This document shows, piece after piece, positions 3,110 through 25,552 of a DNA stretch of 25,552 nucleotides. Position numbers and translations under genes: made by a program. Origin of the DNA: an archaeon (GTDB taxonomy: Archaea > SpSt-1190 > DYHY01); the NCBI GenBank assembly GCA_043803745.1, contig JAZDJS010000001.1, positions 1 to 25,552 of the forward strand. The letters are read 5' to 3'. Below the pieces are notes generated by a model that worked only from the letters and a program-made list of their open reading frames with translations, was not told the origin of the DNA and ran no database searches. Each line of letters begins with the position of its first letter. Position 1 is the stretch's first letter.

Positions 3110-4183
3110 ATGCCGGCAAAGAACCTCTCAGCGGCAATTGTCTCAGCAGCAGAGGGGATCAGGAACAAGGAAATCGAGCGCAAGGCAGCCTCGGAATTCC
3201 TCCAAAGCATTTCCTTCGAATCAGCCGCCAAGATTCTCCCCGGAATCGCCCTGGAAGGCGCGCTCTTCCTCCAGGTCCCGAAGGAAAACTTCTCAGGCAA
3301 GATTCTCGGGGTTGATGGCGGGATGCTGAAGGAACAGTATCACGGCGTTGACCTAATCCTTCTCCGGGCAGTAGGAGTCCTTTTCGAATATTCCGCCGGA
3401 AAGCTCGCCAAGCACGCATACTTCCCCTCCGAAAACCCGGTTCCCGAACCGACGACAATTGTCAACGCCGAAAGCGAAATGGACTTTCTGCTCGCGGCAA
3501 ACATCCTCCGTCCCAAGAAGGAATTTGAAACTGCTCTCGCTGCAGCGAGAGAATTCCTGCCAGAAATCCTCGTGATGCACGGCTCAATCGTTCCTCACCC
3601 GGCAAACCGGGCTGGCGAGAGCAGCCCCCTGCGGCGAGAATATCTGGAAATGCTTGAGGCATACAAAGCGCTCTATTCGTTCTGCCTTGAGAAGGGAATC
3701 CTTCTCTGCGGGGTTGTCGAAGACTCCCGCGACAATGGCTTTTACCAGGCGGTTTCCGCCAATTCCCCGAAAGCACCGAAAACGAACTGCCGGGATTCGG
3801 TAATCCTCTTCGATGCGCTTGCTACGGGAGAACGGACCTGCGCCCTGAAACATTCCGGACATTCCCAGCTGGAAAACGGCCTTGGGCGACTTGCCCGTCA
3901 GGTCTCCTCATTCTATCTCAAGCCAGCCGAGTTCGATAGGCCTGTCAAGGTCGATTTCCTCTCCGAATCTTCAGATTCCAGAACTGCTGAAAAGGTTGCT
4001 AGGGCAATCTACAACACATCCAGATTCAACCGGAGCTACGGAATCCCGACGGTTACGATAGAAGCCGACGCACGCGCCAAGCTGAAAGAGGAGGACATCG
4101 AGCTAATCTTCCAGCAGATTTCCGATAGGGCTGGAGCGACCCCCCTTTCCTTGGCGCTCAGAAGGAAGAACAGGCCTTTCTGA
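3110..4183 (+). CDS. nurA: NurA-family nuclease
   Basis: ILGVDGG, RNase H-like motif ILVMHGSI, GVVEDS, D..LF..L..GERT, FYLK..FDRPVKVD, YGIP...IEADARA; adjacent to herA. Confidence 0.88.
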   Translation: MPAKNLSAAIVSAAEGIRNKEIERKAASEFLQSISFESAAKILPGIALEGALFLQVPKENFSGKILGVDGGMLKEQYHGVDLILLRAVGVLFEYSAGKLAKHAYFPSENPVPEPTTIVNAESEMDFLLAANILRPKKEFETALAAAREFLPEILVMHGSIVPHPANRAGESSPLRREYLEMLEAYKALYSFCLEKGILLCGVVEDSRDNGFYQAVSANSPKAPKTNCRDSVILFDALATGERTCALKHSGHSQLENGLGRLARQVSSFYLKPAEFDRPVKVDFLSESSDSRTAEKVARAIYNTSRFNRSYGIPTVTIEADARAKLKEEDIELIFQQISDRAGATPLSLALRRKNRPF

Positions 4184-4290
4184 GGTCGACATTCGCAATA
4201 ATACGTAAGATAGCTGCGAATACCGGTTGAGCCTGGAGCGAAATCGGTAATCCTCTGCAGAGGAATACCGGCAAAGTCCACCCGAAAAGA

Positions 4291-4298
4291 CTTTTATT
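4291..4298 (+). promoter_or_regulatory. Putative TATA box (with upstream BRE) for herA
   Basis: CGAAAAGA-CTTTTATT, 23-30 nt upstream of ATG 4321. The similar CTTTTATT lies about 25 nt upstream of nurA. Confidence 0.5.
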
Positions 4299-4320
4299 CC
4301 CGTACTTTAGCACGGAGTGA

Positions 4321-5850
4321 ATGCTGGAACTGCGGGAAATCGGAAAAGCCATTTCAAGCCTAGAGGGCCCAAGCCCTGACGGATTTTCTTTCGTTATTGA
4401 CAGGGCCGATTTCATTCCTGCAAGACGGGACCAGTTCGTTTCAGTGGAGTTCGAGGACGGGACGGTTGTCGCAAGAATAGAGAACATCAGGAAGACCAAC
4501 AAGTATTTCGCCCGTGCTGAAACCGTCAGGGAATATGGCAAGGACACGGACCTTTCAAGCCTCTTCCCGATAGATTCTTGGGAATTCCTTGTCGCGGATG
4601 CCCGCGTCCTTGGCGTCTTTGCCTCGGACGGGAAGATAATCCGCTCAACTTATCCTATTTCCCCCGGAGCAGCTGTCAAGGAAATTGAAGGCGCCCGCCT
4701 CTCCAAATTCCTGGGTTTCGAGGAGAAAGGGCTCGACATTGGCAGAGTCGAACACCACGACATCCCCGTCAAAATAAACCCGACCCGCCTCCTGCAAAAG
4801 CATCTGGCAATACTCGCGATGAGCGGAGCGGGAAAAAGCCACCTCACCCGCGTCCTTATCGAGGAGCTCCTTGACCGGAAGAAGGAGCAAGGGAGGCTTG
4901 CGGTAGTTGTAATTGACGTCCATGGCGAATATTCAAGCTTCGCAGACCCCGGCCTTTACAACGGAAGGACAACCCTTGTCGATTGCGCGAAATTCAAGAT
5001 TCCCGTCCCGGACCTCTCCGCCCGGGAAATATGCACATTCAACCCTTCGATAACGGCATCCCAAAGGCGCCTCATCAACTCTGCAATTGCAACTCTCAAG
5101 AAGAACCAAAGGGAAACAGGGAAAGCATATGAAATCTCGGACATCGTCCGGGAAATAGAAGCGGCTGAAGAGGGGAAGAAGGATTCGAAAACGGTTGCAA
5201 TAGGCTGGCTGGAGGACCTGGATTCCTCAAGGATTTTCTCCGCAACGGGATTTCCCGCAGTTTCCGAGATAATCGCCCCCGGAATCCTCACAGTCTTCGA
5301 CCTTTCCGGGATAACAAGCACGCACACCAAGCAGATAATCGTAAGCTACGTTTCCCGCAAGCTTTTCGAGCTCCGCAAGCGGAATGCCTGTCCCCCATAT
5401 GCCGAGATTGTCGAGGAAGCGCACAACTTCGTCCCCCAGGGCGAGTCGCGGGAAAACGCGGTTGCAAGGTGGATTCTTGAGGTCGTTGCCCGCGAAGGCA
5501 GGAAGTTCTGCGCATCCCTCGTCTTGATTTCCCAGAGGCCGGTCCGCCTTTCGACGACAATCCTCTCCCAGTGCAACACGCACATAATCCTCCGGGTGAC
5601 AAACCCGAACGACCTTGACCACATCGGCCAATCTTCCGAAGGAATCAGTAGCGACACACTTTCAAGCATAACGGGCCTCCGGGTCGGGGAAGCTCTCCTT
5701 GTCGGCGAGGGTGTCAACTACCCGACATTCGTCAAAATAAGGGATAGGAAAAGCCCGCCCCCGAGGCATTCCCTCGGGATTGAGGAGGCTGCCAGGGCTT
5801 TTGAGGAGCGCGCCTCAAAACGGGCGGAGGACGCGGACGCGTTCGTTTGA
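4321..5850 (+). CDS. herA: HerA helicase/translocase (HAS barrel plus FtsK/HerA ATPase)
   Basis: N-terminal beta-rich HAS-like domain, H.AILAMSGAGKS (Walker A), IDVHGEY, EEAH (Walker B), AREGRKF, ISQRP, SQCNT. Confidence 0.95.
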   Translation: MLELREIGKAISSLEGPSPDGFSFVIDRADFIPARRDQFVSVEFEDGTVVARIENIRKTNKYFARAETVREYGKDTDLSSLFPIDSWEFLVADARVLGVFASDGKIIRSTYPISPGAAVKEIEGARLSKFLGFEEKGLDIGRVEHHDIPVKINPTRLLQKHLAILAMSGAGKSHLTRVLIEELLDRKKEQGRLAVVVIDVHGEYSSFADPGLYNGRTTLVDCAKFKIPVPDLSAREICTFNPSITASQRRLINSAIATLKKNQRETGKAYEISDIVREIEAAEEGKKDSKTVAIGWLEDLDSSRIFSATGFPAVSEIIAPGILTVFDLSGITSTHTKQIIVSYVSRKLFELRKRNACPPYAEIVEEAHNFVPQGESRENAVARWILEVVAREGRKFCASLVLISQRPVRLSTTILSQCNTHIILRVTNPNDLDHIGQSSEGISSDTLSSITGLRVGEALLVGEGVNYPTFVKIRDRKSPPPRHSLGIEEAARAFEERASKRAEDADAFV

Positions 5851-10609: not shown

Positions 10610-11809
10610 ATGGCAGGAAAAACGAAGAGGAACATTGTCGTCGAGAAGCTTGCTTCGCGCCACATCGAGGACATCGCGACCGAGATGGTCGAGCGCAAGG
10701 GGATAGGGCATCCAGACAGCATAATGGACGGGATGATGGAGGAGGTTTCCCGCGAGCTTTGCAAATATTACATCAAGAAGTTCGGATATATTCTCCATCA
10801 CAACACCGACAAGGGGCAGCTCTCAAGCGGCTCATCCGCGCCGGTTTTCGGCGGAGGAAGCATTCTGAGCCCGATTAACATAGTCCTTTCGGGACAGGCA
10901 ACTGACCGGGCCGGAAACGACGAGATCCCGGTTTCCGAGCTGGCAATACAAACCGCCAGAAGCTATCTTAACAAGGCGGTTCCGAGAATGGCCAATTTCG
11001 AAGGGGCCGACTTTGAATCGAGGATTGTGATGGGCTCGACGGACCTGAGGGACAACTTCAGCAGGAAAATCCCCGGGGCGAACGACACAAGCTTCGGCGT
11101 CGGATTCGCGCCGTTCAGCAGGATCGAGAAGCTTGTGTACGAGACCGAGCTTTTCCTGAACAGCTCCAAATACAAGAGGAAGAACCCGGCTGTCGGAGAG
11201 GACATAAAAGTGATGGGCCTCCGGCAAGGAGACCGCGCGGTCCTGACAATTGCCGCCGCGCTCGTTTCCTCCGAGCTGAAAAGCCTTGAGGAATACCTCG
11301 CATGCAGGCAAAAGATTCTCAAGGATGTTGCTGCCTTTTCAAAAGAAACATCTCCCCTTAGGACCGAGGTTGTCGTCAACAATCTCGACTCCTCCAAGCG
11401 CAAGTCCGTCTACATAACAGTCACCGGAACCTCGGCTGAGATGGGCGACGCCGGAGCTGTCGGGCGGGGCAACAGGGTCAACGGCCTGATAACCCCCGCA
11501 AGGCCGATGAGCCTTGAGGCCGCCGCCGGGAAGAATCCCGTAAGGCACGTCGGGAAAATCTACAACCTCCTTGCTAACGAGGCTGCAAAGGCGATTGTCG
11601 CGGAGGTCCCGTCAATCAAGGAGTGCCAGGTGAAGCTCCTTTCCCAGATAGGAAGGCCTATTGACGACCCCCTTGTCGCGGAGCTCCAGATACTTTCGAA
11701 GAGGGAAAAGGAGGATTTCCAGCTTGCCAAGAAAATACTTGACCGGGAGCTTGCGGACATATTGTCGATAACCCAGAAGGTTGTTTCCGGGAAGCTTTCG
11801 GTGTTTTAA
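10610..11809 (+). CDS. mat: Archaeal-type S-adenosylmethionine synthetase
   Basis: [70 protein letters not shown]. Start placed at ATG 10610 with TTTTTAA at 10581-10587. Confidence 0.96.
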
Positions 11810-11837
11810 AAAGCGGCGCGCGCGCAAAACAGGGAAA

Positions 11838-12755
11838 ATGGCTGCCGAACCGGTAGAGCTTGGGCGCAAGGGGGTTTTCTATTTTCCTGGAAGGGTCAAC
11901 TCGGGCCTGATCTCCCCGAACGGAAAGCAGGGCGTGCTCATTGACAGCGGAATTGACGAGGATTCCGGGCGGCGGCTCCTTTCCGGCTGCCAGGCCAAAG
12001 GCATTGGGATTTCCGCAATACTCAACACTCACGGGCACTCCGACCATTTCTCGGGGAACGCGATAATAGTTGAACGGACCGGCGCAAAGGTTTTCGCGCC
12101 CGAAACCGATTCAGCGATAATCCGGAATCCCTCCCTTGAGCCCTATTTCCTCTGGGGGATGGCCGCCCCCCCGAAGGAAGCAAGAAACAAATTCCTGCAG
12201 GGAACTCCGTGCAAGGTCGATGAACTTGTCAGCGAGGGGAAATTTTCCGCGGCCGGATTCGAGCTTGAGGCGATTTCCCTTCCGGGACATTCGGCAGGCC
12301 AGACGGGATATCTTTTCTCGAAAATCCTTTTCGCAGGGGATGCCTTTTTCTCGGGCGAGTCCCTCTTCAAGCACAAAATCCTGTTCTGTTCGGACGTTTC
12401 CTCCGCGCTAGCATCAATAGGCAAGCTTGAAGCCCTCGTGAAAGAGGGCCGGGTCGAAACGATTGTCCCGGGACATGGGGAGCCCGCAAGCGGGAACGCT
12501 CTTGCAAAGACCCTTGGGGATAACCGCGCTTCTCTTGAGGCTGCCTCGGAGGCAATCCTCTCCCTTTTTGGGGGCGAGCCGAAGACAGACCAGGAGCTTT
12601 TGAAGGAATATTCCGACCGGGAGGGCACGGTCCTCAACTTCACGCAATACGTTCTCCATCTGACAACTTTCCGCGCCCAGCTCACGCATCTCCAGGCAAC
12701 CGGGCGCGCATCCTGCAAGATGAGTGAAAACCGGCTGGTCTGGGAGAAAAGTTAA
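11838..12755 (+). CDS. Metallo-beta-lactamase-fold hydrolase (glyoxalase II-like)
   Basis: LIDSG, NTHGHSDH, LPGHS, FAGDA, VPGHG; start at ATG 11838. Confidence 0.9.
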   Translation: MAAEPVELGRKGVFYFPGRVNSGLISPNGKQGVLIDSGIDEDSGRRLLSGCQAKGIGISAILNTHGHSDHFSGNAIIVERTGAKVFAPETDSAIIRNPSLEPYFLWGMAAPPKEARNKFLQGTPCKVDELVSEGKFSAAGFELEAISLPGHSAGQTGYLFSKILFAGDAFFSGESLFKHKILFCSDVSSALASIGKLEALVKEGRVETIVPGHGEPASGNALAKTLGDNRASLEAASEAILSLFGGEPKTDQELLKEYSDREGTVLNFTQYVLHLTTFRAQLTHLQATGRASCKMSENRLVWEKS

Positions 12756-18739: not shown

Positions 18740-19381
18740 ATGGTAGAAAAGAAGACAATACTGGAAGCCCTGAAGATTGTCAGGGAGAACGCGGGAAAGC
18801 GGAACTTCAAGCAGTCCGTTGACTTTACAATGAATCTCATCAACGTTGACATGAAAACCCTGAAGGTCGCGGACTCGGTCGAGCTTCCCCACGGGCGGGG
18901 AAAGGATGTCGATGTTGCGGTCCTCGCGGACGGCGACCCATCCCTTCAGGCGAAGAAGTCGGGAGCCCACACCGTCGTCACCAAGAAGGAGATTTCCCAA
19001 TATGACACGAAGAAGGTCAGGAAGCTTGCCGAGCAGTGCGAGTGGTTCATTGTCCAGGCGCCCCTGATGCAGCCCTTTGCGTCAACGTTCGGTATAATAC
19101 TCGGTCCGAGGGGGCAGATGCCCTTTCCGAAAGATGTCATTGGTCCGGTTTCCGATCCAACCCAGGTAATAACCAGGCTGAAGAGGAGCGTCCGCGTCCG
19201 CGTGAAGGACAGGCCGGTTGTCCACGCATTCGTAGGGACTGAAAGCATGTCCGACGAGGAGCTTGCCGACAACATTCAGGCGGTCTACAAGGCGGTCCTT
19301 TCGAAGCTCGACAAGGGGATACACAGCATCGGGAAGATGTATCTGAAAACGACAATGGGAAAACCCACCCAACTCAAATAG
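18740..19381 (+). CDS. rpl1: 50S ribosomal protein uL1
   Basis: KRNFKQSVD...NL, LPHGRGK, FI.QAPLM, LGPRG.MP, VGTE.M...LADNI, KTTMG. Confidence 0.96.
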   Translation: MVEKKTILEALKIVRENAGKRNFKQSVDFTMNLINVDMKTLKVADSVELPHGRGKDVDVAVLADGDPSLQAKKSGAHTVVTKKEISQYDTKKVRKLAEQCEWFIVQAPLMQPFASTFGIILGPRGQMPFPKDVIGPVSDPTQVITRLKRSVRVRVKDRPVVHAFVGTESMSDEELADNIQAVYKAVLSKLDKGIHSIGKMYLKTTMGKPTQLK

Positions 19382-20273: not shown

Positions 20274-20318
20274 CGACCCGGAAATATGAATAAAACAAAG
20301 TGAGGGAAGAAAGAAAAA

Positions 20319-20627
20319 ATGGAATACATATATGCGGCAATGCTCCTGCACAAGGCGGGAAAGACTGTTGACGGGGACGGAATAAAGAAGGTTCTCTCAT
20401 CGGCCGGAATTTCAGCTGACGAGGGGAAGATCAAGGCTCTTGTTTCAGCCCTTGAGAACGTCAAGATTGAGGATGCGATAAAGAAGGCGGCAGCAATGCC
20501 AACTGCATCCGCAGCACCGGCAGCCGGGGCAGGGGACCAGCAGAAGAAGGACGACAAGAAGGAAGAAGCAGACAAGGCAGCGCAGGACGAAGCAGCATCG
20601 GCAGGTCTTGCTGCGTTGTTTGGATAA
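20319..20627 (+). CDS. rpl12: 50S ribosomal protein P1 (L12p)
   Basis: MEYIYAAMLLH, KALVSALE.V.I, Ala-rich hinge, C-terminal GLAALFG. Confidence 0.97.
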   Translation: MEYIYAAMLLHKAGKTVDGDGIKKVLSSAGISADEGKIKALVSALENVKIEDAIKKAAAMPTASAAPAAGAGDQQKKDDKKEEADKAAQDEAASAGLAALFG

Positions 20628-20728
20628 ATCACCAGTCCAGCAAGCGGCTGGGCGACACGTTCCGGCTGAAAGCCAACTGTCGGGGTTCGTCCAGCGCCAT
20701 GAGTTGGAACTCTTTGGATGAGCGGCTT

Positions 20729-20762
20729 CCGGGGGCAAAAGCCCCCGGTTTTCTTTCATTTT
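20729..20762 (+). terminator. GC hairpin plus U-rich tail (putative terminator of the rpl operon)
   Basis: CCGGGGGC-AAAA-GCCCCCGG followed by TTTTCTTTCATTTT. Confidence 0.65.
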
Positions 20763-20864
20763 CCCGAGCTGAAAAAAATTTGAAATATCTTTCAGGATGC
20801 CGACAAAATACCCAAATTATATAAACACCAAGTAAGTAACTACTTTGGGGGGAATACTGGAAGT

Positions 20865-22469
20865 TTGACAAACTCTTGGTTAGCCGTGTCTTCGCCAAAT
20901 GGCGCCAGCGTTGCAAGGGGCGCCGGGATTTACATTCACGCGTACGAAAGGGACGGAACGCTCAGGCACACCCTCCAGATTGACAGCGGCCTTGCCCAGG
21001 AAAGCTCTCTTTTCGAGCCGGACCCCTTCACTTCTTACGGCTTGCCGGTCTATCAGCCCCCTGTAATAGGCTCCTTTTTCGCAACGCATTCCCACTTCGA
21101 CCATATCGGGAACACCTTGGGGGTTCTCCATAATTTTGCCAGGAACGGGCACGAACCATTTTTCCTGAGTCCCGAGGCTTACGCAGTTCTTCCGATTCTC
21201 CTTGCTGACGGACTTTCAGTTTCCCTCGGCGACAAGCAAATCGGGGACCGGGATTTCGACAAGGAAATGGCTTTCCTCAGGACCGCTTTTCCCGGTTTCG
21301 ATGCTGACGAAGGGATTGTCTGTCCCGGAGCCAAGAAGAAGGGGCCTGTCAATTTTGTCATTCTGAACAATGGGGAATCCGCACCGTTCGGCCCAGCGGG
21401 AGAATTCACAGTAACCGCTTATCGCGCAAACGGCAGGGAACATCTTCCGGGAACGAACTATTACGTCTTTGATTTCGGCGGAACCAAGATAGCAACCCTT
21501 CTCGATGTCGGGCTTGAGCTTACGTACGACCCGCAGACTGATCTGGCTGCCCAGCCCTGGCTGAGGCAAATAGCCGGCTGCAACGGGTTGATTATGGAGG
21601 GAACAACAGCTGACCGCGTCGAAAACCTTGGCCCGCGGGAAGAAAGGGAGCGCGCCCTTTCAGCTGACTTGCTTGAAACGCTGAAGACCTACGACCTTGT
21701 TGTCTATCCTGCTTTCGCCCAGGACAGGTCCGGAGATCTGCTGAAGCAAATAAAACAAACCCTTGAGGACGCCGGGCTCGGGCGGGACAAGGTCGAGATT
21801 ATTTTCGCAGCACCCCTTGCCAAGGAGTTGATGCAGACCTTCAACAGCCCGTATGGGGATTGCCTGTCCCTTCTTGAGGGAACGATACAAGACCCGGCTT
21901 GGAATTTTTCTAACAACCGCAAAGAAGGGAAGAAATACGTTGTAATCGCAACCGCAGGCTTCGGAGACTATCCAACCCCCTCATATTTCCAGCTTGAGGA
22001 AGCCCTTGCCCTTGAAGAAGGAGCAATAAGGCTTACTTCAACTTTCGCTCCCGAACACTCGGAAGTTGACAGAATCCGGAAGATTCCCGACCTTCCAGAG
22101 GGGAAGGTGCGCACAACCTCCCTAACAGGGCACCCCCCTTCAGGGAGAGATTACGACTATCTAGCGCAACTCGCAGCCCCGAAACCGGGCGGCGCATATG
22201 AGCTGGTCCACGGGGACTTCCTTGCGCTCTGGGCAATGCAGCGGAACCTCATCGAGCGGGCAGGTCCGCACAAGCTGCTGAAGCCGGCATATTACAAGGA
22301 AGGCAGGGGCATAGTTGTTCCTGCCGCCAAGGGAACTGGGGACCGCGCAATCTGCCTTGCCGACCCCTACACAAGCCTAATAATAGGCCCGGACGGATAT
22401 GTTGGGCGGGTCCTTAGGGACCGGGAAGTTCTTTCAGTTAGGAATCTGGCAAGGCGGCATCCAGGATGA
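20865..22469 (+). CDS. Divergent MBL-fold beta-CASP nuclease (no KH domains)
   Basis: IDSG, THSHFDH, HLPG, LLDVG, IMEGT, YPAFAQDR, IATAG, SLTGH, LVHGD, in the expected beta-CASP order. Confidence 0.85.
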   Translation: MTNSWLAVSSPNGASVARGAGIYIHAYERDGTLRHTLQIDSGLAQESSLFEPDPFTSYGLPVYQPPVIGSFFATHSHFDHIGNTLGVLHNFARNGHEPFFLSPEAYAVLPILLADGLSVSLGDKQIGDRDFDKEMAFLRTAFPGFDADEGIVCPGAKKKGPVNFVILNNGESAPFGPAGEFTVTAYRANGREHLPGTNYYVFDFGGTKIATLLDVGLELTYDPQTDLAAQPWLRQIAGCNGLIMEGTTADRVENLGPREERERALSADLLETLKTYDLVVYPAFAQDRSGDLLKQIKQTLEDAGLGRDKVEIIFAAPLAKELMQTFNSPYGDCLSLLEGTIQDPAWNFSNNRKEGKKYVVIATAGFGDYPTPSYFQLEEALALEEGAIRLTSTFAPEHSEVDRIRKIPDLPEGKVRTTSLTGHPPSGRDYDYLAQLAAPKPGGAYELVHGDFLALWAMQRNLIERAGPHKLLKPAYYKEGRGIVVPAAKGTGDRAICLADPYTSLIIGPDGYVGRVLRDREVLSVRNLARRHPG

Positions 22470-23674
22470 GCTCGCCCATTTCTCTTTCATTTCCAAGCCC
22501 GTCAATCAGGCTGGGCGTTTCGACAGTTCTCAGGACGCCAACGGGAGCCGTTGCCGTTGATGCGGGTCATTTTTTCGACGGCGATTTCTCCGGCGTTGAC
22601 GCAGTCATACTGACTCATGCCCACTGGGACCATGGGGCGCATCTTGCAAAAATCTTGGATGAAAGGAGAATCCCGATTTATTGCACCCCTGAAACGAGAA
22701 ACCTTCTGAGAGAAAATCCCGAAGTTTACCGGGGACGCCCCGATGAGAACGGGCACATGCTGCTCGTTGCAAAAGCGGCAATTGAGGTTGACTATCTCAG
22801 CCCGTTCGAAATCGGCAACGGAATAACTGCAACGCTCCTTCCAGCGGGCCATTTGCCCGGCTCAGCCCAAGCCTTTTTGGAATATGACGGAATGTCCGGG
22901 ATTTTCTCCGGCGACATCAACACGCAATATTTTGGGGATTTCCGAGGACGCCCGTTTGCGGGGGAAGCGCTGCATCCGAACAACGGAGAACGCAAGGTTG
23001 ATTTTGCGGTTACCGAGTGCACGCATGCTGAAAAGGACGGGATTTCCAGCAAAGCCGCCTACGAGCAATTAAGAGCCGCAATGATTGACGTCGCCGAAAA
23101 AGGCGGGCGGGCAGTAATAGCTGCGCCAAACTTCATGCGCGGGTCCCAAGCCGCATATCTTGCGAGGCAGATTCTTGACGAGGACGAAGCAGCCTTCCGA
23201 GGATATTCCTTGATTTATCCCCGTAGCAAGGGTCTTGCTTTCCTGAGGAAGTATTATCCGGAAACATATGCCGACCTTTCCGCGAAAGGACTTGAAACTG
23301 AAACAGGGAAGAAAAAGAACCTCCCGAGCGCCTGTTTTATTGTTTGCGAGGATTATTACAAGTTTGCAGGAGTCCGGAGAAATCCCTTTGCACTCATAAA
23401 CACCCGGTCCGCAGCCTGTCCGCGGAATCTAGAAGCTCTGGAATCTTCAGGCTCGTTTTACGCTGCGCCAATCCCCATCCATTCAGGGGGCCCTGAGCTT
23501 GTCGAATATGTCCGTGACTGGATAGCGCCAGGGCAGGAAGGCGCGCAAATTTTCCTCAATCACGGGAGGAGGAAACAGTTCGAGGCAATGAGGGGCCGCC
23601 TAATTGGCGAAGGATATGCCCCGGCCGCAATACACATCCCCCAAATACAGGAAACATTTGTTTTAAGGGAATAG
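22466..23674 (+). CDS. Second divergent MBL-fold beta-CASP nuclease, translationally coupled (ATGA overlap)
   Basis: VDAG, ILTHAHWDH, PIYCTPET, AGHLPGSA, FSGDI, VTECT, GGR..I, PIHS, FLNHG. Confidence 0.85.
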   Translation: MSSPISLSFPSPSIRLGVSTVLRTPTGAVAVDAGHFFDGDFSGVDAVILTHAHWDHGAHLAKILDERRIPIYCTPETRNLLRENPEVYRGRPDENGHMLLVAKAAIEVDYLSPFEIGNGITATLLPAGHLPGSAQAFLEYDGMSGIFSGDINTQYFGDFRGRPFAGEALHPNNGERKVDFAVTECTHAEKDGISSKAAYEQLRAAMIDVAEKGGRAVIAAPNFMRGSQAAYLARQILDEDEAAFRGYSLIYPRSKGLAFLRKYYPETYADLSAKGLETETGKKKNLPSACFIVCEDYYKFAGVRRNPFALINTRSAACPRNLEALESSGSFYAAPIPIHSGGPELVEYVRDWIAPGQEGAQIFLNHGRRKQFEAMRGRLIGEGYAPAAIHIPQIQETFVLRE

Positions 23675-23737
23675 TGCCCAAAATAGCACTCCAAAGTGGC
23701 TAAAATTTATAAAGCAAGAAGCGCTAAGAACTCAAAT

Positions 23738-24334
23738 ATGCCCAAACCAGCAATACCTGCAAAGGAATATACTTTCGACATCGGAGTTTTGCCAAATGAA
23801 CCGACCGGAAGGACCTCCCTTCTGGAAGCGCTCCCAGCGGACCTGCAAACACCCGGCACATACCCGATAAATATTGCTAGCCGGGGGCGAGCTCTTGGAA
23901 CCGCCACGATAAAAGTCGGACCTGAAGGTCATGCAGAAGTTTCGCTTGAAATGGAATTTGAAGAGAGGCAGGCAGATTTGGCGGCTGCTTTCGCGAAAGT
24001 GGCATATTCTGCGCATTCCAGCCTCGCTTACCTCCTTACTTCAAGCGGAGGCTGCTTGAAATTCGACGGAATTGGCAGCAGGAACTTGGGGCCGCCTTTG
24101 CTGAAGAAAGGGTCATTTTCGTTTTCAGGCGGAGCATATCCCCTCAAGTCCGCGACTTTCGAAACCCGCGCATACCGGAACGGTTCCGGGAAGAAAGGCC
24201 CTTATGCGGAAGCCAAGCTTTCCCTTGAAATGGAACTTGGAGAGGTTTCCTCCGGGGACTGGCTTGCGAAAAATCTAGCGCCCGTCCTGAACGCAGTCGT
24301 CAGCCCTTACTGCAGAATTGTCCAGAGCGAATGA
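23738..24334 (+). CDS. Hypothetical protein (no recognisable family)
   Basis: Long ORF filling the gap. TTTATAAA at 23706-23713 favours ATG 23738 over GTG 23696. Confidence 0.7.
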   Translation: MPKPAIPAKEYTFDIGVLPNEPTGRTSLLEALPADLQTPGTYPINIASRGRALGTATIKVGPEGHAEVSLEMEFEERQADLAAAFAKVAYSAHSSLAYLLTSSGGCLKFDGIGSRNLGPPLLKKGSFSFSGGAYPLKSATFETRAYRNGSGKKGPYAEAKLSLEMELGEVSSGDWLAKNLAPVLNAVVSPYCRIVQSE

Positions 24335-24409
24335 TGTCCGCTCTGGGAACCCGCCCGGGGAAAACGCAGTTTTTTTTATAAACCCGGAGCTGAAGGCTTC
24401 CTCCGGGAG

Positions 24410-25357
24410 ATGGCAGAGAAATCAGAGCAGCTCGCAAAGGCAGCTAAGGGAGCACCCGCAGGGACTCCCACAGGGACTCCCGCAAGGTTCCCCAAGGAGT
24501 TGCCTAAGAGCGTACCTAGCTACCTACCAAGCGACCCCAGGGAGCTCTACAACCTCCTGATAACCGAGAAATACAAGCGGGACGAAGCCAATTCGAAGGT
24601 CCGCGAGGCAATCAGCACCCTGAAGCTCCTCCGCGATGAGCGGGACGGGATGAACAAGGAAATTGCCGGGCTAAAGGAGCAGAGGAATTCCAGCCGCGCC
24701 CGGGGGCGTGAGATGATTAAGCAGGCAAAGGTCCTCCGGGAAATGCTCAAGGGTTTCGAAGCGCCGAAGGGGTCCTCCACTTCCCTTGGCAAGCTGATAG
24801 AAGAACTGGATTTCAAGTACCAGACAAACCCGGTTCCGTTCGAGGAGGAAAAGCGCCTCGTCAAGAAAATCGAGGAGCTGAAGAAGCTCTGGAAAGCCCG
24901 CAAATTTGTCGAAAAGAAGCGCGCGAACATTTCCTCGATTTCAACCGAGGTCGACACATTCTTCTCCGAATCGGACGAGCTCCACAAGCAGGTCGTTGAA
25001 AAGGCGGAGAAATCCGAGGGAATCCACAAGCTTTTCATTGAGAAGATCCACGAGATAGACAAGCTCCGCGCCAAATCGAACGAGGCGCACCAGCTTGTCG
25101 TCAAGTATGCGCAAGCCCTCGGCGATGCCAGGGAAATTGCGTCCGAGGAGAGGATACAGCGGCGGGCGGAGGAGCTCCTTGAGCAGGAGAAGTTCCTGAA
25201 GGAGCGGGCTGAGCAAGTCTGGGAGAAGATAGAATCGAAGATTTCTGCGCAGTCGGGGAAAAAATCGTTCAACTTCAGGGATCTTCAGGTTCTTTCAGCA
25301 GTATCGGGAGAGGATTTCAGCCTTGAGAAGGCAACAAGAGCCAGGAAGAAAAATTAA
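24410..25357 (+). CDS. Archaeal coiled-coil protein (COG1340-like)
   Basis: Repeated RD..N..V/I units, IEEL.F..QT......EEK.LV.KI.EL, S.E.H..V, A...W.K......F.DL. Confidence 0.8.
   Translation: MAEKSEQLAKAAKGAPAGTPTGTPARFPKELPKSVPSYLPSDPRELYNLLITEKYKRDEANSKVREAISTLKLLRDERDGMNKEIAGLKEQRNSSRARGREMIKQAKVLREMLKGFEAPKGSSTSLGKLIEELDFKYQTNPVPFEEEKRLVKKIEELKKLWKARKFVEKKRANISSISTEVDTFFSESDELHKQVVEKAEKSEGIHKLFIEKIHEIDKLRAKSNEAHQLVVKYAQALGDAREIASEERIQRRAEELLEQEKFLKERAEQVWEKIESKISAQSGKKSFNFRDLQVLSAVSGEDFSLEKATRARKKN
24455..24538 (+). repeat. 12-bp-period degenerate tandem repeat encoding seven Pxxx units
   Basis: CCCGCAGGGACT CCCACAGGGACT CCCGCAAGGTTC ... encodes PAGT PTGT PARF PKEL PKSV PSYL PSDP. Confidence 0.7.
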
Positions 25358-25552
25358 GGCGGTAATCTTCGACCTCGACGGAGTTTTGATTGACAGCGAA
25401 TCGATTGCGGCAAAACTGGTCCTCCGGCACGTGAAAACGGATTGCGGCTTGGCCCTTACGAAAGAGGATGCCCGGAGTTTTTCCGGCTCCGGCGACAAGG
25501 GAGTTTTGGACTATATTCATTCCAACTATGGCGTTAGGCTGGACGAGAAACG
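25323..25552 (+). CDS. HAD-superfamily hydrolase (beta-PGM/CbbY-like), 5' part; runs off the window edge
   Basis: Manual translation from TTG 25323: ...KIKAVIFDLDGVLIDSE...; open to the end of the window; not in the ORF track. Confidence 0.88.
   Translation, partial: MRRQQEPGRKIKAVIFDLDGVLIDSESIAAKLVLRHVKTDCGLALTKEDARSFSGSGDKGVLDYIHSNYGVRLDEK

Follow-up and report, generated by a model that had tools for sequence, protein, structure and literature searches.

We analysed a window of 25,552 nucleotides (nt), contig JAZDJS010000001.1 of the archaeal genome assembly GCA_043803745.1, in which two consecutive genes, P1 and P2, encode divergent beta-CASP metallo-beta-lactamase nucleases and are followed by an orphan open reading frame (ORF), ORF3 (Table 1). 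An initial annotation had proposed a candidate two-subunit nuclease system between rpl12 and a COG1340-like gene. The coordinates of the two ORFs, of 534 and 402 amino acids (aa), and their overlap can be read directly, with ATGA at positions 22466–22469 common to the stop of P1 and the start of P2; so can the TATA-like box upstream of P1, while the right-hand neighbour is a DUF7121 gene according to Pfam. As a whole, we favour with moderate confidence a reading in which P1 and P2 are two separate, probably active ribonucleases (RNases) that are co-expressed, the first lineage-specific and the second, together with ORF3, a strain-specific addition.

By their motifs and predicted folds, P1 and P2 belong to the beta-CASP subfamily. 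Using the motif definitions in general currency, the metallo-beta-lactamase motifs 1–4 of P1 are D40, H75/H77/D79/H80, H193 and D214, and its beta-CASP motifs A, B and C are E245, H423 and H449, all of which vary little or not at all across alignments of the family and the superfamily. In P2, alignments give D32, H51/H53/D55/H56, H129 and D150 for the former set and E184, H339 and H366 for the latter. Retention of the catalytic and beta-CASP residues in both proteins, including histidine at motif C, had been claimed and stands; the exception is motif B of P2, which reads P-I-H-S-G where others have S-x-H, and before which ~45 residues are absent. The P1 family has S/T-G-H at this motif. Histidine at motif C is the RNA-type state of beta-CASP enzymes.

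Scans with Pfam and NCBIfam models found no KH domain in either protein, in line with the initial annotation, and no PF10996 (Beta-Casp) match; PF07521 (RMMBL) did not match P1 and matched P2 at E 0.04 only. Taken alone, P1 gave only sub-threshold family matches, and P2 matched Pfam Lactamase_B at 3.5e-12. A profile of four P1-family members retrieved 1292 proteins at E<=0.001, and the nearest of these outside the family carry Pfam Beta-Casp/RMMBL. The curated Beta-Casp and RMMBL models are too narrow for P1 and P2.

The predicted structures point the same way. An AlphaFold model of P1 built from a 35-row alignment (predicted local distance difference test (pLDDT) 84.7, predicted template-modelling score (pTM) 0.87), which replaced a poor version from four rows (pLDDT 51.5), has TTHA0252, RNase J, aCPSF1, IntS11 and CPSF73 as its top Foldseek matches (E 1e-19 to 1e-15). 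The best of them, the Thermus thermophilus RNase TTHA0252 (PDB 2dkf, 3ie1; E 1.6e-19, template-modelling (TM) score by target 0.69), also shares the S/T-x-H signature of the P1 family at motif B (S378/H380, residue numbers from PDB titles). This enzyme and related bacterial beta-CASP RNases of 430–470 aa are likewise among the best sequence matches of P2 (TTHA0252 2.8e-7). Identity is, however, only 17% for P1 and 25–28% for P2, and P2 differs from it in its P-I-H motif B. The best match of P2 among PDB sequences is aCPSF1 (2xr1, 1.6e-9), and its Atlas model (pTM 0.84) superposes on Beta-Casp/RMMBL clusters with a TM score of 0.83 over residues 5–401.

Database searches separate the two proteins further. 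An exhaustive profile search found five P1-family representatives at E<=1e-30 among 1.84 billion; past the fifth, E-values rise from 1e-92 to 1e-19, and the clusters behind these representatives amount to ~10 sequences. In a word-indexed search of 5.8 billion clusters, P1 matched only itself among 8000 scored candidates. The same collection returned for P2, besides itself, 49 ordinary beta-CASP proteins, most at 24–34% identity; the best match, P0003, was also the best in phmmer, where P2 finds canonical proteins and no P1-family row. Direct comparison of P1 and P2 by BLASTP gave no significant similarity (E 0.18), confirming that they are very unlike each other and not recent duplicates.

The archaeal beta-CASP groups described in a 2012 survey (PMC3553952) are aCPSF1, aCPSF1b, aCPSF2 and aRNase J, the last given there as restricted to Euryarchaeota. 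We computed a quick IQ-TREE phylogeny over 441 columns from 39 rows (seven of the P1 family, P2, five aCPSF1, nine aCPSF2-like, five aRNase J and 12 database matches); the rows were picked from searches and form an incomplete sample from which aCPSF1b, restricted to Methanococcales, was left out. Separate clades were recovered for aRNase J (support 100), aCPSF1 (99) and aCPSF2 (98). All P1-family rows fall into a single clade (100, stem 1.55) composed of two paralogue lines, A (93) and B (84), and we refer to P1 as P1A where the lines are compared; P2 remains unplaced, on a branch 2.47 long. P1 and P2 fall outside the aCPSF1 clade, outside the aRNase J clade and outside the clade of nine aCPSF2-like rows, although for long branches this last exclusion can be an artefact. 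A topology uniting P2 with the P1 family was not rejected by the approximately unbiased (AU) test (p 0.57), a result subject to long-branch attraction. Derivation of the P1 family from aRNase J, considered for its HxHxDHxG wording, was rejected, as the tree puts the family on the aCPSF side (100).

Among the described groups, aCPSF2 (for example Sso0386 / Saci-aCPSF2; COG1236) is close to P1 and P2: it too has only the metallo-beta-lactamase and beta-CASP core, lacks KH domains, keeps all motifs with histidine at motif C, and lies on the same, aCPSF side of the tree rather than with RNase J. In contrast to P1, which in the model carries a C-terminal extension and a helical insert after motif 2, it is ~100 aa shorter; P2, on the other hand, is shorter than aCPSF2 and has the deletion before motif B. 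On the aCPSF1 model of NCBIfam (TIGR03675, cut-off 580 bits), aCPSF2-like proteins reach 250–310 bits, whereas P2 reaches 57 and P1 19.1. aCPSF1 / FttA itself shares the catalytic fold and motifs but has two N-terminal KH domains, which P1 and P2 lack, and against the aRNase J model TIGR00649 (cut-off 400 bits) P2 scores 12 bits and P1 has no match.

We surveyed the genome of the window (G000; 1.23 Mb, 51 contigs, 90% complete) together with 40 relatives, which include one genome of the same genus (G001) and one of another genus of the same family (G003). When named genomes were scanned with P0, a record of Candidatus Micrarchaeum sp. (L027) came out as by far the nearest, at 61%. Strong matches to P1 occur only in G000, G001 and G003; six of the 41 genomes match at E<=0.01, and the other three matches (E 0.005–0.01) are ordinary genes. 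P2 matches 37 of the 41 genomes, with all non-self matches (36 of 40) at 61 bits or less and on ordinary frames of 410–660 aa, and ORF3 matches its own genome and none of the other 40. Viral contigs scanned with P1 and P2 contained no relatives of either. In G001, rpl12 is followed by a P1A orthologue (567 aa) alone and then by DUF7121, which implies that P1A can stand without P2. DUF7121 lies directly behind rpl12 in G002 and G004, where the slot is empty; in G003 the slot (L024:242-1600) holds an unrelated orphan of 453 aa, and in G005 a gene other than DUF7121 occupies that place. The slot-side counterparts in G001–G004 match DUF7121. In these genomes, the content of the place behind the rpl1–P0–rpl12 operon thus varies, and this slot seems to collect lineage-specific genes. 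Within it, P1A evolves fast, with 32% identity between G000 and G001, compared with 78% for rpl1, 71% for P0, 73% for rpl12 and 55% for DUF7121.

The two lines of the P1 family differ in genomic context, A standing behind rpl12 and B behind a NUDIX gene. P1B-type genes are present in G000, in G003 and on two metagenome contigs, of which one (L078) was examined. In G000, P1B starts 2 nt after the stop of the NUDIX-like gene. Where the upstream side could be read (G000, G003 (L003) and L078), the order is a NUDIX-like gene, P1B, a small antisense ORF and a protein of 180–199 aa; the 181-aa form of the latter in G000 is conserved and of no known family. Visual inspection shows an intact NUDIX box, with a weak Pfam NUDIX match (1.2e-4) and no Pfam match for the L078 copy. 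This arrangement suggests a two-step pathway in which 5' ends are converted first and an exonuclease acts next. In G001 the P1B counterpart is a pseudogene with four stops in the match (three TGA, one TAA; L007, contig C16, ~1300-2150), and a near-identical intact form of 507 aa is found in metagenomes (P0054).

ORF3 has no family match in Pfam, NCBIfam or PADLOC scans, matches only itself among 316 candidates in the word-indexed search of 5.8 billion clusters, and has no usable match in the Atlas. Its two halves align with 42% identity over 38 aa (E 1e-5), and a DNA repeat lies within it (23940-23965 and 24219-24244). The start is probably ATG 23738 rather than GTG 23696, because AAATTTATAAAG lies ~26 nt upstream of the former and public collections carry the 198-aa form; the TATA box of its own that had been ascribed to ORF3 is this element. 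ORF3 shows no similarity either to the gene in the slot of G003 (453 aa) or to the 181-aa protein next to P1B.

In the arrangement we propose, one transcript from the TATA-like box upstream of P1 would carry P1 and P2, with translation of P2 coupled to that of P1 through the ATGA overlap, and the two products would act as separate, probably active zinc-dependent beta-CASP ribonucleases. P1A, standing next to rpl12, is one of the two paralogues of a small clade that evolves fast and is confined to the Candidatus Micrarchaeum family (DPANN), whose genomes contain aCPSF1 and aRNase J while lacking an ordinary aCPSF2; the clade is most likely a lineage-specific replacement or offshoot of the aCPSF2-like RNases. 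Known aCPSF2 members are 5'-3' exoribonucleases (PMC3553952; PMC3792030), and the P1 clade probably takes part in aCPSF2-like RNA turnover as a 5'-end-dependent exonuclease and/or endonuclease. Line B would act with the NUDIX enzyme; line A has its place behind the stalk-protein operon. The slot between rpl12 and DUF7121 would have received P2 and ORF3 as additions in this genome only. Since P2 and ORF3 occur in one genome and the slot content varies, the trio would be the accessory cluster of one lineage and not a conserved two-subunit machine; the pair, confined to this genome, is therefore probably no fixed two-part machine. The proposal of a conserved two-subunit system is accordingly not sustained by the relatives, given the solitary P1A of G001 and the lack of close relatives of P2 and ORF3 in the 40 genomes and the large collections.

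Several observations weigh against the reading just given. The exactness of the ATGA overlap is easier to reconcile with P1 and P2 having adapted to each other over a long time than with a recent insertion. By parsimony, a gain in G000 is preferable to a loss in G001 by a single step only, and as only two genomes represent the genus, the polarity of gain and loss is weak. The low G+C content at third codon positions (GC3) of P2 and ORF3 (7th and 5th percentile) and their low codon index (~15th percentile) are a weak signal, the reference being all ORFs of at least 300 aa, spurious frames included. An RNA substrate is argued from the motif-C histidine, by a general rule, and from the fold neighbours. 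Finally, given the AU result (p 0.57), P1 and P2 may stem from a tandem duplication long ago, an origin in keeping with a heterodimer.

In our view, a heterodimer of P1 and P2 that works as a beta-CASP ribonuclease through two intact active sites, perhaps with ORF3 as a third partner, is unlikely. Such an enzyme would have precedents in CPSF73/CPSF100, IntS11/IntS9 and RNase J1/J2, likewise pairs of paralogues expressed together, and solved complexes such as INTS9–INTS11, as well as the RNJ2–RNJ1 model, are among the fold matches of P1. In the eukaryotic heterodimers one partner has a degenerate active site, whereas P1 and P2 both keep intact catalytic motifs, and the known pairs are conserved together, which P1 and P2 are not: the same-genus P1A orthologue has no partner gene. 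The ATGA overlap, with no internal promoter, suggests that the two are co-expressed stoichiometrically; a clade of P2 and the P1 family is not rejected by the AU test, and aCPSF1 is dimeric (PMC3553952). On the other side, P1B is partnered by a NUDIX gene and not by a second beta-CASP protein, P2 stands alone, with no relatives that co-vary with it, and P2 finds canonical proteins yet has no detectable similarity to the P1 family. A complex prediction with P1 and P2 both entered as alignments (score 0.13, mark 0.32) bears neither way on binding. Rather improbable, too, is a more far-reaching version, in which a symbiont with a 1.2 Mb genome has expanded its beta-CASP genes to five and P1A and P2 make up a new heteromeric RNase, both active sites being live, that is tuned by ORF3 and serves either the processing of the symbiont's own RNA in place of aCPSF2 or the degradation of host-derived nucleic acids for nucleotide salvage; if it were true, conflict with host or viruses would lie behind the fast evolution.

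A role of the trio in conflict, whether in defence against viruses or in competing with the host cell, would fit a slot whose content differs in four of five family or order genomes, the much faster evolution of P1A than of its neighbours, and the orphan status of P2 and ORF3, and beta-CASP nucleases can indeed serve defence. Cas14, the beta-CASP effector of type VII CRISPR-Cas, appears among both the sequence and the fold matches, with weak similarity in the nuclease core. The Cas14 model, however, gives only 17–44 bits against a cut-off of 800, and the locus contains no Cas genes, CRISPR-like repeat arrays, integrase or tRNA. Anti-viral defence, which the initial annotation had raised, finds no match among the defence systems of PADLOC-DB 2.0: P1 and ORF3 have none at E<=0.1, and P2 has a negligible one (E 0.052). 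With housekeeping genes as neighbours and no relatives on the viral contigs scanned, we regard this explanation as quite unlikely. Still less credit, in our estimate, is due to the idea that only P1A matters and that P2 and ORF3 are functionless remnants of a mobile element or of a duplicate in decay. Their absence from all relatives, their low GC3 and codon index, and the ~45-residue deletion and missing S-x-H signature of P2 could be so explained, but neither reading frame is interrupted, P2 retains all metal ligands and has a confident Atlas model, a promoter-like box and a duplicated-domain structure are seen for ORF3, and no integrase, att-like repeat or tRNA target accompanies them.

Beta-CASP ribonucleases are central to archaeal RNA decay and transcription termination. 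The P1 family represents a clade not described before, which evolves fast and escapes the curated models; it occurs in a symbiont lineage with reduced genomes and without an ordinary aCPSF2. With P2 as query, the four genomes of the family yielded no aCPSF2-like frame. A full-text search for 'Micrarchaeota' together with 'beta-CASP' found no paper, papers on DPANN aCPSF1/aCPSF2 not having been checked for such a clade. As the P1–P2 pair is a feature of a single genome, a complex would have to be shown for it to be of more than limited general importance.

G000 holds five beta-CASP genes in all, and that two of them should be adjacent by chance is unlikely, by rough inference rather than a computed test. 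Its ordinary aCPSF1 lies on another contig and is the sole match of a PF10996 search of the genome. The aRNase J gene (contig C49:74442-75770) reaches 389 bits, just below the NCBIfam cut-off of 400; the aRNase J genes of G000 and of G001–G004 each score 369–395 bits against this cut-off. A 438-aa beta-CASP gene of G004, considered as a syntenic aCPSF2, was rejected, as it is an aRNase J and has other genes around it.

For P1, the version of the gene caller begins at GTG 20886 (527 aa); the start at TTG 20865 is favoured because the first strand of the P1 model comprises residues 5–9. The box AAATTATATAAA lies ~40 nt 5' of this TTG, with a G-run (20847-20853) in between. The hairpin upstream of it is likely to mark the end of the rpl1–P0–rpl12 transcript, and rpl12 was named from its sequence and its position behind rpl1 and P0, not from a family search. 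TTTTTTTTATAAA is placed ~28 nt 5' of the ATG of the DUF7121 gene, an arrangement like that at ORF3, and the T8 run at 24367 may act both as a terminator and within the promoter that follows. The locus has no Rfam match (20300-25552), no nearby tRNA gene and no notable flanking direct or inverted repeats.

Table 1 Features of the P1–P2–ORF3 locus and of the P1B locus of the same genome. Positions are those of the window, except in the last row.
Feature	Position	Strand	Remarks
rpl1	18740-19381	+	ORF list
P0	19392-20273	+	ORF list
rpl12 (ribosomal stalk protein P1/L12), left border of variable slot	20319-20627	+	ORF; 73% identity to G001 counterpart
G+C hairpin then T-rich tail	20729-20758	+	terminator-like, 8/8 G-C pairs; consensus match only
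TATA-like box AAATTATATAAA, candidate P1–P2 promoter	20814-20825	+	read in sequence; putative function
P1 (P1A), divergent beta-CASP metallo-beta-lactamase nuclease, 534 aa, TTG start	20865-22469	+	
P2, orphan beta-CASP nuclease, 402 aa, ATG start	22466-23674	+	
TATA-like AAATTTATAAAG, candidate own promoter of ORF3	23702-23713	+	putative function, from spacing
ORF3, orphan, internal duplication	23738-24334 (198 aa, ATG) or 23696-24334 (212 aa, GTG)	+	
T8 run + TATAAA	24367-24382	+	possible upstream-gene terminator plus putative DUF7121 TATA box
DUF7121 coiled-coil gene, right border of variable slot	24410-25357	+	Pfam PF23435 5.1e-19
P1B, 515 aa	L008:1345-2889 (G000 contig C48)	-	neighbours L008:2892-3719, 1012-1326, 388-936

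The remaining genes of the window are of housekeeping type and include those for MetRS, NurA, HerA, an arginine/ornithine-type decarboxylase, deoxyhypusine synthase and S-adenosylmethionine synthetase. The NurA nuclease gene (357 aa) adjoins the HerA-type helicase gene (509 aa) at 3110-5850, the usual archaeal end-resection pair, and an additional metallo-beta-lactamase gene (324 aa) is located at 11781-12755. TATA-like boxes precede the ATG of both ORF3 and DUF7121 by 26–28 nt (23702-23738, 24367-24412), and this spacing suggests leaderless or near-leaderless transcripts in the source organism.

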